Assembly (NCBI GenBank): GCA_009015555.1
Contig: GCA_009015555.1_3613.1
Origin: a phage
Reading direction: 5' to 3' (one strand)
Length of the DNA: 64,000 bases
Below the pieces are notes generated by a model. That model was not told where the DNA came from. It searched no databases and saw only the letters and a list, made by a program, of their open reading frames with translations. Position 1 is the stretch's first letter, and every line of letters begins with the position of its first letter. Below, piece after piece: positions 1,189 to 60,015 of this stretch. The position numbers were made by a program, and so were the translations under genes.

Positions 1189-2187
1189 ATGCAAAACGGC
1201 GATTTCCAGATTCTCGACTACACTGGCCTGATCTCTACCATGCCACGTGTGGACACTCTGCTTCAGAGCATGAACCTGTTCACCGAACATTTCGGTCGTA
1301 CCACTGTTGCCCGTATCGAACGTCTGGATGACGGCGCTGGTGACATCAAGGCTGTTCAGCGTGGCGGTGTGCGTCAGCACCTGGCTAACGATCGTAAAAA
1401 GATCGTCAACCTGAACATCCCGTTCTTCCCTCTGGACCGTTCCATCGACCGTGCAGACATTCAGAACTTCCGTGAGTTCGGAACTGAGAATGCCCCTGCA
1501 ACTGTTGATGCGGAAGTTCAGCGTCACATGGCACGTATTCGTCGTAGCCACGCGATCCTGAAGTCCAAGGCCATGTATGCTGCCCTGAAGGGCACCTCTT
1601 GGTCTCCGGATGACCCGGTTTCTGACTACAACTACTACGAAGTTTGGGGCGCAACTCAGCAGACTGCTGACGTTGACTTCACCAAGCTGGGCGTAGACCC
1701 GATTGAAGTCCTGGAAGCTGAAGCACGTGCTCACATCATCGACTGGGCTGGCGACAACGGTGACAACTACGAGATCGTCGTTCTGGCGTCCCGTCAGTGG
1801 TTCTCCGCGCTGATCGCTCACCCGCAGGTGACTGGTGCGTACTCTCAGTACCCGTCAACTCAGGAAATGCTGCGTCGTCGTCTGGGCGGTAACGCTAACA
1901 ACCGTATCTTCGAGCACAAGAACATCCTGTTCATCGAAGACATTTCCGGGAACATCCCGGCGGGTGAAGCGTACATCTTCCCACGTGGTATCTCTCGTAT
2001 GTTCGAGATCTACTACGCGCCGAGCGACACCCTGCGTGACGCTAACCAGGTGGCTCAAGAACTGTACGTGTTCTTCAAAGAGTCCAACTACCTGCGTGAA
2101 GCGAAGATCGAGTCTGAGACTTCCTTCCTGACTGTGAACAACCGTCCTGAACTGGTTGTTAAGTCCACAGGTAAGTTCACTGCATAA
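1189..2187 (+). CDS. major capsid protein
   Basis: 332-aa ORF with RBS AGGAGA; follows scaffold and decoration-like genes; followed by hairpin plus T-tract. Confidence 0.55.
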   Translation: MQNGDFQILDYTGLISTMPRVDTLLQSMNLFTEHFGRTTVARIERLDDGAGDIKAVQRGGVRQHLANDRKKIVNLNIPFFPLDRSIDRADIQNFREFGTENAPATVDAEVQRHMARIRRSHAILKSKAMYAALKGTSWSPDDPVSDYNYYEVWGATQQTADVDFTKLGVDPIEVLEAEARAHIIDWAGDNGDNYEIVVLASRQWFSALIAHPQVTGAYSQYPSTQEMLRRRLGGNANNRIFEHKNILFIEDISGNIPAGEAYIFPRGISRMFEIYYAPSDTLRDANQVAQELYVFFKESNYLREAKIESETSFLTVNNRPELVVKSTGKFTA

Positions 2188-56381: not shown

Positions 56382-56577
56382 CAGTTTCGAAACAGTAGAA
56401 GCCCTCGCATACCGTGCCGTCTTGGCGGGTAAAGTTGACGATGACCTCATCGTCATCGGCGTCAACAGAGACTACGACGCCCTTATCCCCCGGACTAACC
56501 CCGTCGAGGCTATAATCTTCCAGATTTTCCGGATTGAAGATAACCTTTTCGCCTACCGCTACCAGTTTGTTGCTCAT
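56359..56577 (-). CDS. hypothetical acidic protein
   Basis: 72-aa ORF with RBS GGAGGTGAGG; ATGA overlap with helicase stop. Confidence 0.5.
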   Translation of the reverse strand: MSNKLVAVGEKVIFNPENLEDYSLDGVSPGDKGVVVSVDADDDEVIVNFTRQDGTVCEGFYCFETDVEVCGD

Positions 56578-57935
56578 ACCTCACCTCCAAAAATTTCAGG
56601 GAATGTCTCATGATAGAACTTACGGACACCTTGGTCAACAATAATGTCCTTCACACGTAGGCGCTTCATCAGGCGAAGACCTTCGGTGCTCGTCGCTCGG
56701 GACAGCATAACATAGGCTTGGCCCGGCGTGAAGGTGCCGAAACCTAAATCAATGTTCACTTTACCCAGCGTCAGGCCCTGTGCTTTGTGTCCGGTGATAG
56801 CATAGCCCAATTTGAACGGGAACTGCAAGTATTTCCCGATCTCTTTGTCAACCAGTACGGTCTGCTTCTCCATCACCTTGACAGTCTGCTTGGTGCCGTC
56901 TTCCAGTTCGATCTCCTTTTCAACCTGGACCATCTTTTCTTCCGGGACCTGTGTCACGTTGGTCCACTCGTACTTGCCGATGTGGATCGGCTTTCCGTCA
57001 ATGTCCACGATGACAAAAGTCTTGGCGATTTTCTTGATGATCCCCACCGTACCGTTGACGTAATCTGGCTCCTTTTTCTTCTGGTCGTTGTCGTTAACAA
57101 CAATCATGACCTTCAGACCTTCTTTCAGGTTCAGAACTTCGTTGACCGGACGCTCCGGGAACTCGCCCGAGATCTTGGCTTCGAACACATGAGGCTGGGC
57201 CTTGATCTTCTCAAACTCCCGCTGGTTGATTTCCTCTGCGAGTTTGTTGGTGGTCGTTAAAGTCACCGCCCCTGGCAGGGCCGGGCCGAAACAGTGTTGG
57301 TTGAAGTAATCAACCGCCGCCCCGACGTTATTACCCACACGGATGTTGTTCAGGTGTTGAGCGAACACAGGATCAGACTGGCGGTGTACCTTCGGAAGAT
57401 ACGCATTGGTAAAATCCAGTTGGTTCCAAATATCCGAACCGAACGGGATTTCATTGCCGTGCAGTTCACGGAACATCGCCGTCTCTTCGCGCTTCAGAAC
57501 AGGCTTGATCTGGAAACCGTCGCCAAACATGATGACCTGAAGGCCACCGAAAGGCTTGTTTACCTTGCGGTGATAACGCAGCTTCATGTCGATCTCCCGC
57601 AGCTTGTCGCTACGAATCATGGAGATTTCGTCGAACACGATAGCGTCCAGCGCATTAGATGCCATCAGCATCGCAGGCTTCTTGGACTTCGCTTTGTAAT
57701 CTTCCTTGGTGGTAACACCAAACGTCAGACCAAAAGCCTTGTGAGCGGTGATCCCTGAAATGTTCAGCGCCGCAATCCCTGTCGGTGCAACGAACAGGAA
57801 ACTGTCAGCGAAGAACTCACGCAGAGTGGCAATCATCAAGCTCTTGCCAGATCCACCTGGCCCGGTGATGAACACGTTATCACCCGCCATGATGGCTCGC
57901 ATTGCTTCTTCGTTACCAATTACTGTTTTACCCAT
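56574..57935 (-). CDS. SF1B DNA helicase (PIF1/RecD/Dda-like)
   Basis: 453 aa; Walker A GPGGSGKS, Walker B VFDEISM. Confidence 0.8.
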   Translation of the reverse strand: MGKTVIGNEEAMRAIMAGDNVFITGPGGSGKSLMIATLREFFADSFLFVAPTGIAALNISGITAHKAFGLTFGVTTKEDYKAKSKKPAMLMASNALDAIVFDEISMIRSDKLREIDMKLRYHRKVNKPFGGLQVIMFGDGFQIKPVLKREETAMFRELHGNEIPFGSDIWNQLDFTNAYLPKVHRQSDPVFAQHLNNIRVGNNVGAAVDYFNQHCFGPALPGAVTLTTTNKLAEEINQREFEKIKAQPHVFEAKISGEFPERPVNEVLNLKEGLKVMIVVNDNDQKKKEPDYVNGTVGIIKKIAKTFVIVDIDGKPIHIGKYEWTNVTQVPEEKMVQVEKEIELEDGTKQTVKVMEKQTVLVDKEIGKYLQFPFKLGYAITGHKAQGLTLGKVNIDLGFGTFTPGQAYVMLSRATSTEGLRLMKRLRVKDIIVDQGVRKFYHETFPEIFGGEV

Positions 57936-58120
57936 TACGCCTCTGCCTCAAATTTGGTGGTGCCAATGATTTTGGCCTCACTGATTTCAATATTCGTGTG
58001 GCCTTTCTTTGCCAAACGGCTGGCCTTCAGTGTTGCCGCCTGCGGATCGTCAACTTTGGCGCGAACGCTTTGACCATAACCCGCATCGGATGATACCAGA
58101 AAAACAGACTTCTCTTCCAT
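57935..58120 (-). CDS. hypothetical protein
   Basis: 61-aa ORF with RBS AAGGGGAG. Confidence 0.5.
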   Translation of the reverse strand: MEEKSVFLVSSDAGYGQSVRAKVDDPQAATLKASRLAKKGHTNIEISEAKIIGTTKFEAEA

Positions 58121-58129
58121 ACACTCCCC

Positions 58130-58318
58130 TTAATCGTGAGCCAAACAAGCAGTGATTACAGTTGCCAAGAGGAACATCAAGGCTCCCCACCCCATCAAAT
58201 ACGGGACCTGGGATGAGAACTGTGCCATCATCTCAGGGAAAAAGAACTGTGCGCCCCAGCGGGCCGGGAATATCCAAACCAGCATGAATGTAATGAACAG
58301 AATGATAAGATTTCTCAT
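58130..58318 (-). CDS. small membrane protein (2 TM), holin-like by size and position
   Basis: 62 aa, hydrophobic; RBS AGAGGAAAAGG; start overlaps stop of hydrolase gene. Confidence 0.45.
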   Translation of the reverse strand: MRNLIILFITFMLVWIFPARWGAQFFFPEMMAQFSSQVPYLMGWGALMFLLATVITACLAHD

Positions 58319-58848
58319 GTCGCCTTTTCCTCTTTTGGTTTATAAAACACATGGTAGCCGATAGTGGCTGTTTTCGTAAAGAACTTTCTCCAGTATGGCT
58401 TGACCTTCTTCGTGTGGAAGTGAGTCGCACCATGTGTTGGGTCCAGCTTGTTGTACAATACCTCATTATTCCGGATCTTGTAAAGGAATCTCGCAATATC
58501 TTGTGCGACCATCCAAGACTCCCGATCCCTGACTGCATAGCCGTTTCTTGCCATTGTCCAGGAAAATTGTGCAGATTGATACACAACCTTCCTGACTGAC
58601 CCGGGATACCCGTCGTGCTTTAGCCTGTTCAGAGTAACAAATCCAACCGCCATCTGTCCACTGATATTTTCCCCACGCGACTCGAAATAAATATTGCAGG
58701 CCAGTGCGTTGACCGACGAGTCATTGTTTTTGCACACATGAACAACCGGGGCGAGCTTTTTCTTCGGTGCGTTATCTTTTGCCAAAGCAGATACTGGGGC
58801 GAAAGATAAAGCGCTGGCTGCGAATAGTGCAGCGATGCTCTTTTTCAT
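58315..58848 (-). CDS. secreted cell-wall hydrolase, SleB-type
   Basis: 177 aa; N-terminal signal peptide MKKSIAALFAASALSFAPVSALA; NIYFESRGE...GQMAVGFVTLNRL motif of SleB-type hydrolases. Confidence 0.6.
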   Translation of the reverse strand: MKKSIAALFAASALSFAPVSALAKDNAPKKKLAPVVHVCKNNDSSVNALACNIYFESRGENISGQMAVGFVTLNRLKHDGYPGSVRKVVYQSAQFSWTMARNGYAVRDRESWMVAQDIARFLYKIRNNEVLYNKLDPTHGATHFHTKKVKPYWRKFFTKTATIGYHVFYKPKEEKAT

Positions 58849-58897
58849 CCAAACTCCTAAATGAGAAAGGCCCAGTTTATCACTGAGCCTTTAGAAG

Positions 58898-59299
58898 TCA
58901 AGCCTTTTTGGAGGCTTGAGCGAGAACTCCCTTCTTAACATCTTCCCAAAGAGAATTGAGGAAAGGGTCGTTGGTGATCACGTCGGCATACCAAGGGCCG
59001 TAGATACGGTACACGGAATCGACGGTGATCGCGTACAAATGCCCAGAATGGACGGCAAGGCCAGTCACGTAGCCAGTACGCACTTGGGTCCCATCCTTAC
59101 CTGTCTTCCGGCGCTTCGCCTCATTGAACTCGATATAACCTGTCAATGTGACAATCTTCTCCGGGACCTGAAGATCCGGGAGTTTTTCGTGGCTAAGGAC
59201 CTGATTCCCAGATTTACATCCCTCCAGGCACAGATTTCCGCCGTACTTCTTCCCGTACTTACGGGCAAACTCAGCCATTTTGATCGTGGACAATTTCAC
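58898..59299 (-). CDS. hypothetical protein
   Basis: 133-aa track ORF (GTG start; alternative ATG at 59278 would give 8-nt overlap with macro gene). Confidence 0.45.
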   Translation of the reverse strand: MKLSTIKMAEFARKYGKKYGGNLCLEGCKSGNQVLSHEKLPDLQVPEKIVTLTGYIEFNEAKRRKTGKDGTQVRTGYVTGLAVHSGHLYAITVDSVYRIYGPWYADVITNDPFLNSLWEDVKKGVLAQASKKA

Positions 59300-59801
59300 T
59301 CTCCTTCAGAACATAAATGGTCACATCGAAGTCTCTCAGGCGACCTTCAATCATCCGAGATATGATACCCCAATCGCCACCTGCGAGTCCAGCCCCTATT
59401 TTTGGTAGCCCGATACGAAGGTCTTGGGTACTCATATCCAGAGTACGACACTTGGCATGGAGAGATACCGCCATTGCAGACAGGGCCGAACGCAATGCCC
59501 AGTAATCGAGGTCCATCTTACCCTCTCTGCGCCCGGTGAAGGTGTATTGACCGTACAGATTGTAAACCAGTAAACCATTTTTGCAGAAGGCCGACGACAA
59601 AGTTCCCAGTTTAGCCCGATCACCACGGGTGGTCATTTGGTCTGCCGTCCACGCTTCCGGAAAAGCTGACGCAATCTTTGGGGCAATACCAGACTTCATG
59701 GTATTCATGCAGTTACAGCAGTGGGCTATCACGTTTACCTCTCCAGCCTGCGCCGCAGAGATCAGATCGCCCACACGGTATGTCATTTTACCACAAGGCA
59801 T
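59271..59801 (-). CDS. macro-domain-like (ADP-ribose binding or processing) protein
   Basis: Track ORF 59271..59882 trimmed to ATG 59801; VNVIAHCCNCMNTMKSGIAPKIASAFPE near N-terminus and GLAGGDWGII near C-terminus resemble macro-domain motifs. Confidence 0.45.
   Translation of the reverse strand: MPCGKMTYRVGDLISAAQAGEVNVIAHCCNCMNTMKSGIAPKIASAFPEAWTADQMTTRGDRAKLGTLSSAFCKNGLLVYNLYGQYTFTGRREGKMDLDYWALRSALSAMAVSLHAKCRTLDMSTQDLRIGLPKIGAGLAGGDWGIISRMIEGRLRDFDVTIYVLKESEIVHDQNG
59785..59796 (-). promoter_or_regulatory. TTGTGGTAAAAT motif inside 5' end of macro gene (candidate internal promoter)
   Basis: Third exact copy of the 12-mer. Confidence 0.25.
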
Positions 59802-59802
59802 A

Positions 59803-60015
59803 TTAAAGTTCACCCCGCTTCGCCTTCTGGCACATCTGGAGAACGTCATAGCAAGACTGCTTGACGATCCACGGCTCGCCACGGTACAGGGTAATCAGGG
59901 TTCCCTTGCGGTCTTTCCCTTCTACTTCGGTCACCTGCGGGTGAAACTCCCGGATATTTGCAACATCGAGGCAGATTGGTTCTTCAGACGCTAGTTGGTT
60001 CAGGTATACGAACAT
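59803..60015 (-). CDS. hypothetical protein
   Basis: 70-aa ORF with RBS AGGAGGG. Confidence 0.5.
   Translation of the reverse strand: MFVYLNQLASEEPICLDVANIREFHPQVTEVEGKDRKGTLITLYRGEPWIVKQSCYDVLQMCQKAKRGEL

Follow-up and report, generated by a model that had tools for sequence, protein, structure and literature searches.

The DNA analyzed here is a stretch of 64,000 nucleotides from a phage (GenBank assembly GCA_009015555.1, contig GCA_009015555.1_3613.1), referred to below as the window. Its minus strand encodes, at positions 58315..58848 (stop codon 58315..58317 included), a 177-residue precursor of a cell-wall hydrolase of the SleB/CwlJ family (Hydrolase_2) and, at positions 58130..58318, a membrane protein of 62 residues with two helices. 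This region is 96–98% identical to that of the Cronobacter phages CR8, CR3, and PBES 02 and of Pectobacterium phage P7_Pc, and 79–89% identical to that of other members of the genus Certrevirus (subfamily Vequintavirinae). In CR8, the two genes are labeled 'endolysin (SleB)' and 'membrane protein' by RefSeq. The genes CB7_83/CB7_82, CR3_087, CR8 gp090/gp089, and phiTE_033/032 are orthologues, the hydrolases being 90–94% identical and the signal peptide, the 4-nucleotide overlap between the two genes, and the flanking genes being the same.

The pair has been described before. In Pectobacterium phage vB_PatM_CB7, CB7_83 was reported to be a SleB-like protein with a signal peptide, its expression being toxic to E. 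coli (data not shown), and CB7_82, a protein of 65 residues with two helices encoded by an open reading frame (ORF) overlapping CB7_83, was presented as a candidate class II holin (Buttimer et al., 2020; PMC7344957, section 2.8). The same study reported that a classic lysis cassette is absent from Certrevirus, that the spanin genes adjoin the terminase gene, that an additional peptidoglycan enzyme is present in the genus, and that a SleB-like gene occurs in every genus of the Vequintavirinae (PMC7344957). Since Buttimer et al. describe CB7_83 and CB7_82 in these terms, the exported lysin with a holin-like partner that an earlier note on this DNA had proposed is the idea published for the genus in 2020 and is not new. 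The genes were also already annotated in CR3, CR8, and phiTE and, as a finding, are ordinary. What is added here is the existence of a separate cytoplasmic endolysin, the spread of the family across phages, the hypervariability and swapping of the membrane partner, and a conserved element upstream from the hydrolase gene.

The assignment of the ORF at 58315..58848 to the SleB-type hydrolases, made in the earlier note from its signature motifs, was confirmed by four lines of analysis. The protein matched the Pfam profile Hydrolase_2 (PF07486) over its full length (profile positions 1–100, protein residues 59–169) with an E-value of 2.6e-22 and 79.8 bits, compared to a gathering score of 27, and it matched PHROG 938, 'endolysin', with an E-value of 5.9e-26. 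Its motifs, NIYFESRGE (residues 52–60) and GQMAVGFVTLNRL (residues 64–76), aligned with AVYGESRGE...GQVAVAAVILNR in 4FET and 4F55, two SleB catalytic domains of known structure. An AlphaFold2 model built from 54 relatives had a mean predicted local distance difference test score of 89.3 and was confident across the domain, with low values for residues 1–30. Comparison of this model with the Protein Data Bank by Foldseek returned 4F55 and 4FET as the sole significant matches (E-values of 4e-6 to 2e-5, probability of 1.0, target-normalized TM-scores of 0.72–0.77), in spite of an identity of approximately 24%. The 177-residue protein is a single-domain enzyme of the SleB/CwlJ family, for which domain, fold, and catalytic motif agree. 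Glu56, encoded by codon 58681..58683 (CTC on the plus strand, GAG on the minus strand) within Y-F-E-S-R-G-E, was invariant in alignments of 54 and 58 sequences of relatives and aligned with the GESRGE glutamate of 4FET and 4F55. The enzyme is predicted to be a lytic transglycosylase acting through this residue. The hydrolase of phage KaOmega (gp95; locus extract L012, 1945..2571) is annotated 93 nucleotides longer than its orthologues, an inconsistency of start codons.

The catalytic-domain fold and the [YF]-x-E-S-R-G-E glutamate motif are common to the phage hydrolase, to Bacillus SleB, the germination-specific lytic transglycosylase of structures 4FET and 4F55, and to CwlJ. The phage enzyme differs from Bacillus SleB in the absence of the N-terminal PG_binding_1 domain and of the YpeB partner, the catalytic domain being fused directly to a Sec signal. 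Hydrolase_2 was the only Pfam domain detected in the protein, with no N-terminal peptidoglycan-binding domain, and no Pfam match to YpeB or PepSY was found among the neighboring ORFs. Bacillus SleB requires muramic-δ-lactam, which is absent from the peptidoglycan of Gram-negative bacteria.

The first 23 residues of the hydrolase (58780..58848) form a signal peptide according to sequence rules. The N-terminus, MKKSIAALFAASALSFAPVSALA/KDNAPKKK, in which the slash marks the predicted signal peptidase I cleavage site (Ala23/Lys24), comprises a basic n-region (K2 and K3), a hydrophobic core (1.97 on the Kyte-Doolittle scale over a 15-residue window), a proline at position −6, and the A-x-A motif at positions −3 and −1. 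In P0001–P0037, relatives of the Certrevirus type drawn from a search of 5.8 billion proteins, a K/R n-region and a small-x-small motif preceding K/T(D/E) (for instance ALA/K, SFA/K, SYA/K, ASA/K, and VSA/K) were retained while the hydrophobic core varied. No lipobox was found upon inspection of the N-terminus. An uncleaved signal-anchor-release (SAR) segment was considered and rejected: the segment is rich in alanine and serine, but it ends in the conserved A-x-A/K site with a proline at −6, and a SAR anchor would have no need of a conserved cleavage site. Together, these features support the cleavable Sec signal peptide announced in the earlier note and lead us to conclude that the hydrolase is probably a classical Sec substrate giving rise to a soluble periplasmic enzyme. 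In a census of viral relatives in IMG/VR, for which the best-scoring 80 were kept and genes were called crudely (longest ORFs and a hydropathy threshold), 66 of the 67 distinct loci encoded a hydrophobic segment at the N-terminus, preceding the catalytic motif. The homologues checked in Vequintavirus, T5-like, Seunavirus-like, and KPP10-like phages likewise had such a segment; Vibrio phage VEN and Methylophilaceae phage P19250A, both small, have versions devoid of a signal.

The junction between the two genes reads CATGA on the minus strand (58319..58315), the ATG codon of the membrane protein (58318..58316) overlapping the TGA codon of the hydrolase (58317..58315). The overlap reported in the earlier note is therefore real, as are the two predicted helices: the 62-residue protein contains two hydrophobic segments (Kyte-Doolittle values of 2.7 and 2.5) with helices at approximately residues 4–19 and 40–60. 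The first helix, NLIILFITFMLVWIF, has a 15-residue mean of 2.7, is rich in isoleucine, leucine, and phenylalanine, and contains no glycine or alanine. The loop between the helices, FPARWGAQFFFPEMMAQFSSQVPY, is the best conserved part of the protein ([RK]-W-G, F-P-[EQ], and [QE]-V-P). There is a single methionine start (M-R-N), a dual start being absent, and the C-terminus is short and acidic. The protein matched PHROG 10205, 'membrane protein' (E-value of 6.6e-30), which PHROG places in the category 'moron/host takeover'.

The family of the 62-residue protein is restricted to Certrevirus (18 phage records and 6 clusters among the 5.8 billion proteins searched), in which it exists as two types of alleles sharing 25–36% identity. 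Type A, present in CR3, CR8, KaOmega, and POP15, has 62 residues and ends in ACLAHD; type B, present in CB7, phiTE, and F1M1E, has 65 residues and ends in HTVGNE. The window harbors the CR3 type, its membrane protein being 26–36% identical to those of type B. Genus-wide, both types retained the two helices and the 4-nucleotide ATGA overlap, which suggests that co-production of the two proteins matters. No other part of the locus is as poorly conserved as the membrane gene, with a mean pairwise identity of 0.49–0.66 versus 0.71–0.94 in neighboring coding sequences. Phages F1M1E (L011, 1831..2555) and KaOmega (L012, 1760..2478) have hydrolases that are 99% identical and membrane proteins that are merely 31% identical, with a recombination boundary located within the last codons of the hydrolase gene (KEMKA versus KEEKAT). 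This comparison indicates that the partner has been exchanged as a cassette independently from the enzyme. Phage CR9 was reported as an exception devoid of the small membrane gene (PMC7344957). The gene is nonetheless present, unannotated, in CR9 (L010, ~1755..1953), where a single additional G within a run of G residues (TTTGGGGGGTCAGG) interrupts an otherwise intact ORF, probably as a result of a homopolymer sequencing error or of recent pseudogenization. The apparent loss thus reduces to a single nucleotide, and the pair is genus-wide.

Upstream from the hydrolase gene lies a 49-nucleotide intergenic control element (58849..58897, minus strand), delineated by a promoter scan, by RNA folding, and by conservation in eight genomes. 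It contains a terminator-like hairpin (58866..58892; AAAGGCTCAGT-GATAA-ACTGGGCCTTT) with a 9-bp GC-rich stem followed by a T-rich tail, and a Shine-Dalgarno sequence, AGGAG, at 58858..58854. A σ70-like promoter with an extended −10 box overlaps the hairpin (TTGACT at 58901..58896, a spacer of 16 nucleotides, and TGaTAAACT ending at 58874). The spacer between the hydrolase gene and the preceding 133-residue ORF was exactly 49 nucleotides long in all eight Certrevirus genomes compared. An aligned stretch of 81 nucleotides covering it (58835..58915) showed a mean column identity of 97% among these genomes, which are otherwise 79–98% identical, so that no other stretch of the locus is conserved to this degree (0.97 versus 0.71–0.94 in neighboring coding windows). 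The record of phiTE has an annotated terminator at this position. The folded RNA had an energy of −26.5 kcal/mol (z-score of −2.8), with an outer stem pairing the ribosome-binding site with the sequence at the upstream stop codon. One variable position (U/C opposite A58) breaks a pair of this stem in six of the eight genomes and no covariation was detected, so that masking of the Shine-Dalgarno sequence has the support of sequence conservation and none from covariation. The element occurs once in the window, no meaningful family of direct repeats in the window covers it, and no Rfam match was obtained over positions 57800..59400 at an E-value of up to 1. The arrangement suggests that transcription arriving from upstream largely stops at the element and restarts from a host-type promoter.

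Downstream from the membrane gene, and separated from it by nine nucleotides, a 61-residue ORF (57935..58120, minus strand; PHROG 12583, to which PHROG assigns no function) encodes a product 84–100% identical across the genus. Base 57935 belongs both to this ORF, as its last, and to the ORF of a PIF1/Dda-like helicase, as its first (56574..57935, minus strand; Pfam PIF1, E-value of 9e-24; PHROG 30356 and PHROG 325). This helicase gene, tightly packed behind the pair, probably shares its transcription unit. With transcription restarting at the element, the hydrolase, its 62-residue partner, the 61-residue protein, and the helicase would form one unit produced before the late phase. The earlier note had placed the pair in an early block. 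That label found no support in a promoter search, as the consensus of the early promoters of the genus (TGTTGAC-N17-TATAAT, and also TGTTGAC-N15-19-TAnAAT or TTGAC-N16-19-TATAAT) had no match anywhere in the window; the block is a minus-strand block of the replication type.

A second muralytic enzyme of this lineage is encoded outside the window, approximately 55 kb away. In CR8, gp213 (L005, 47146..47739) is a protein of 197 residues composed of the domains Glyco_hydro_108 (GH108) and PG_binding_3, devoid of a hydrophobic N-terminus. Its gene has the PhoH gene on one side and, on the other, the gene for a 137-residue protein, beyond which comes glutaredoxin. In CB7 and phiTE, this slot has the same neighbors but is occupied by a gene for a 127-residue Peptidase_M15_4 enzyme (CB7_190; L014, 1066..1449), in place of which the lineage of the window has the GH108 enzyme as its second lysin. 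True endolysin genes typically undergo non-orthologous replacement within a fixed slot, and the PhoH–glutaredoxin slot is for this reason the better candidate for the location of the main, holin-dependent endolysin. Other lysins have been reported elsewhere in the subfamily: a GH19 enzyme of the Mydovirus phage KPP-1 was cloned and tested as an endolysin (PMC9862379), and Septuagintavirus phages encode an M15C endopeptidase besides the SleB-like hydrolase (PMC11370258).

A translated search detected SleB-like relatives in 1253 phage records, including phages of Escherichia, Salmonella, Pseudomonas, Klebsiella, and Vibrio. The genes of T5 (T5p081/T5.083, 'cell wall hydrolase homolog'), Vequintavirus, Seunavirus-like, and KPP10-like phages encode proteins of 149–190 residues, 34–47% identical, that carry a signal and exist besides another endolysin. 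In T5-like phages, the gene is located in the early region, amid annotated early-region promoters and close to the genes for RNase H, thymidylate synthase, and ribonucleotide reductase, and is distant from the holin-adjacent M15 endolysin gene (PMC11180984). The deletion T5st0 was considered as proof that the T5 homologue is dispensable, and was rejected, as it ends two genes away and retains T5p081. In Vequintavirus phage nimi (L006, 2441..4920), the SleB-like gene lies directly upstream from rIIA–rIIB, its stop codon overlapping the start of rIIA, and in the Seunavirus-like phage SEW_6S (L008, 2390..5146) a gene for a 57-residue two-helix protein with a basic tail stands between the SleB-like gene and rIIA–rIIB. 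Certrevirus phages are reportedly devoid of rII genes. In KPP10, the gene is located amid ligase, DprA, and helicase genes. These placements indicate that a location among replication genes is normal for the family, and the view of the earlier note that such a location is unusual was not borne out. T5-like phages, Vequintavirus, and KPP10 differ from Certrevirus in having no adjacent small membrane protein. The Seunavirus-like phage has one, but its basic-tailed protein differs from the acidic-tailed partner of Certrevirus; non-homologous small two-helix proteins adjoin signal-bearing SleB-like genes both in this phage and in Vibrio phage CHOED.

We propose tentatively, and at a little under an even chance, that the hydrolase is an accessory lysin that is exported, has the 62-residue protein as its membrane partner, and acts alongside the canonical GH108 endolysin, rather than the pair being the main lysis cassette of the phage. 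This reading is preferred because a canonical endolysin exists elsewhere in the lineage. As regards export, it draws on the conserved signal, on the signal peptide and the toxicity reported for the CB7 homologue, and on the absence of CB7_83 from the virion proteins named for CB7 (PMC7344957); as regards the accessory role, it draws on the exchange of GH108 for M15 in CB7 and phiTE and on the distance of the SleB-like gene of T5-like phages from their holin-adjacent endolysin gene. According to this proposal, the precursor would be exported by Sec and cleaved by signal peptidase, giving rise to a mature enzyme of approximately 17 kDa that would be soluble in the periplasm. There, it would cut the glycan strands of the host peptidoglycan via Glu56, with no need of a holin for access to its substrate. 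Its gene would open the transcription unit behind the terminator/promoter element, which would continue into the coupled genes for the 62-residue protein, the 61-residue protein, and the Dda-like helicase. As this unit is shared with replication genes, the enzyme would be made together with their products and would start to accumulate in the periplasm during the replication phase, ahead of lysis. The wall-degrading activity would be low or restrained as long as the membrane is energized and would be released upon depolarization, and the 62-residue protein would serve as the membrane partner, either as a holin-like depolarizer or as a regulator.

The proposed restraint is modeled on known systems. 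Endolysins with a typical signal peptide are secreted during the whole infection, while the membrane potential restrains them until the holin depolarizes the membrane (reviewed in PMC6116005). Lys44 of the Oenococcus phage fOg44, an e-endolysin, is such an enzyme: it is muralytic, has a cleavable Sec signal, accumulates outside the membrane, and is triggered by depolarization (PMC6116005). The Certrevirus hydrolase, with its predicted cleavable Sec signal, would likewise accumulate outside the membrane. The two systems differ in several respects. Lys44 is the sole endolysin of a phage of a Gram-positive host and is encoded in a late lysis cassette, whereas the host of Certrevirus is Gram-negative, a second cytoplasmic endolysin is present, and the hydrolase gene heads an operon of replication genes. 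An e-endolysin effects lysis with its cognate holin; in Certrevirus, the GH108 endolysin exists as well, and a two-helix protein adjoins the hydrolase gene but is not holin-like by its sequence. The pairs formed by SAR endolysins and pinholins (R/S68 of phage 21, gp45/gp44 of phiKMV, and Lyz of P1) resemble the Certrevirus pair in the holin-independent export of the lysin and in the adjoining small two-helix protein (PMC6116005). The differences are that the conserved A-x-A site and the proline at −6 should lead to cleavage of the hydrolase rather than to its anchoring, that the first helix of the partner is strongly hydrophobic rather than SAR-like, that its C-terminus is acidic and consists of few residues, and that it has no match to a holin family. 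The features of the 62-residue protein, as far as its sequence allows one to judge, do not fit those of phage 21-type pinholins or of typical holins. The pairing of a Sec-exported endolysin with a pinholin-like protein suggested in the earlier note therefore stands for the SleB domain, the Sec signal, and the tight coupling to a two-helix protein. A role as the endolysin is weakened by the GH108 enzyme encoded elsewhere, and the hallmarks of a pinholin are lacking.

Several observations weigh against the accessory-lysin proposal. The precedent for a cleaved, soluble endolysin held by the membrane potential, Lys44, comes from a phage of a Gram-positive host (PMC6116005), and no mechanism that would hold such an enzyme inactive in the periplasm of a Gram-negative bacterium was found. 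The 62-residue protein belongs to no Pfam family, matches PHROG 10205 only, with no holin family matched in Pfam or PHROG, and lacks a basic C-terminal tail. Other small membrane proteins of CR8 look at least as holin-like, such as gp120 (L005, 6862..7212, outside the window), a protein of 116 residues in which two or three hydrophobic helices precede a long C-terminal tail of very basic character, encoded within a block of small ORFs of the early type. The 62-residue protein is thus one holin candidate among several. None of the seven annotated membrane proteins of CR8, nor the 57-residue protein of the Seunavirus type, matched a holin family of Pfam or PHROG. The contrast between F1M1E and KaOmega, nearly identical hydrolases being combined with divergent partners, argues against a tight and specific interface between enzyme and partner. 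In the IMG/VR census, a small membrane ORF was adjacent on the same strand at 7 of the 67 distinct loci versus approximately 16% expected from a background of 8.6% of ORFs, an indication, and only that, of no enrichment over chance across phages. Finally, the literature on phage SleB-like proteins, on T5.083, and on timing in the Vequintavirinae yielded only remarks at the level of annotation, with no functional or transcriptomic data, and no experiment in which a phage member of the family was shown to degrade the wall, to be exported, or to affect lysis.

The alternative that best survives is that the enzyme has no part in lysis. It would remodel or nick the sacculus in the middle of infection, with consequences for the properties of the wall, for cell shape or division, or for superinfecting phages, and the 62-residue protein would be a functionally separate, fast-evolving 'moron' acting in host interaction or exclusion, with no more than the operon in common with the enzyme. 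We regard this explanation as possible but rather unlikely. It accounts for a family widespread in large virulent phages, whose members in the IMG/VR census were nearly always signal-bearing and standalone, and for their early or replication-type placement, between early-region promoters in T5 and just upstream from rIIA/rIIB in Vequintavirus and Seunavirus-like phages. It also accommodates a membrane gene that is by far the least conserved of the locus, that is swapped independently from the hydrolase gene, and that PHROG counts among the 'moron/host takeover' genes. Furthermore, a SleB homologue of a Gram-negative cell works in wall remodeling (Zymomonas preprint). On the other hand, no specific role outside lysis is backed by any data, and the toxicity observed on expression of the CB7 homologue is what would be expected of a lysin (PMC7344957). 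The ATGA coupling has been retained in both allele types, and two unrelated phage lineages also pair a small two-helix protein with a signal-bearing SleB-like gene.

The opposite alternative, which is the reading of the earlier note and of Buttimer et al., is that the pair is the principal lysis cassette, the SleB-like enzyme being the main endolysin and the 62-residue protein a pinholin or class II holin, with the GH108 enzyme having an auxiliary or another purpose. This is improbable in our estimation, although it has several points in its favor. The two genes are adjacent and overlap by ATGA genus-wide, RefSeq and PHROG apply the label 'endolysin', and the homologue of CB7 is toxic in E. 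coli (PMC7344957). The SleB-like gene is constant across genera of the Vequintavirinae, in which the other lysin is variable (PMC7344957, PMC11370258, PMC9862379), and the GH108 gene has no adjoining membrane protein. However, the PhoH–glutaredoxin slot behaves as an endolysin slot, GH108 and M15 enzymes replacing each other between retained flanks, and a cytoplasmic GH108 enzyme requires a large-hole holin rather than a pinholin. The 62-residue protein departs from pinholins in its hydrophobic first transmembrane domain, its acidic four-residue tail, the absence of a dual start, and the absence of a family match. In addition, T5-like phages hold a SleB-like gene besides their holin-adjacent M15 endolysin gene, and the hydrolase gene of the window heads a helicase operon behind a σ70-like promoter.

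A second muralytic enzyme dedicated to entry is common in phages. The idea of a virion-associated lysin digesting the wall during DNA injection was nonetheless rejected, its likelihood being close to nil, for a cleavable Sec signal would target the protein to the periplasm of the cell that makes it, whereas virions assemble elsewhere, the gene is located in the replication block and not in the structural block, and, in CB7, CB7_83 appears only in the lysis section of the paper, hence does not figure among the 26 proteins of the virion detected by mass spectrometry, the entry role being assigned to a gp25-like baseplate protein (PMC7344957).

On a broader reading, the signal-bearing SleB-like enzyme would be no ordinary endolysin but a conserved 'second wall enzyme' that large virulent phages infecting Gram-negative bacteria share across families (Vequintavirinae, T5-like, KPP10-like, and others). 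Its export would take place in the replication phase, and it would condition the sacculus for a purpose apart from, or ahead of, the trigger of lysis. In Certrevirus, its production would be driven by the ultra-conserved element combining terminator, promoter, and masking of the Shine-Dalgarno sequence, and the hypervariable, swappable membrane protein would be a lineage-specific modulator. This generalization is speculative, and we would not rate it as likely. The role of a Sec-exported SleB-type enzyme that many large virulent phages of Gram-negative bacteria have besides a canonical endolysin is a real but modest question, and holin-independent access to the wall is relevant to the timing of lysis, to systems with two lysins, and to the choice of antibacterial enzymes. 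The Certrevirus pair, with its two swappable partner alleles and its sharply conserved control element, offers a convenient test system.

The remaining surroundings of the pair are as follows. The earlier note had located it between helicase and macro-domain genes. A helicase gene and a 'macro' gene do flank the region, but the pair does not directly abut them: the 61-residue ORF intervenes on one side and the 133-residue ORF (58898..59299) on the other, between the hydrolase gene and the 'phosphatase/macro' gene (59271..59882). The match of the product of the latter gene to Pfam Macro was below threshold (E-value of 0.02), and it matched PHROG 335, 'phosphatase', with an E-value of 2e-60. Its longest ORF in the window, which has a GTG start, encodes 203 residues and exceeds the 180 residues annotated in CR8. 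The helicase gene is 1362 nucleotides long in the window and in CR8 versus 2472 nucleotides in CB7 (L002, 3075..5546) and phiTE (L016, 275..2746). The difference corresponds to an insertion of approximately 1.1 kb, which, as a guess, may be an intein or a homing-endonuclease element.

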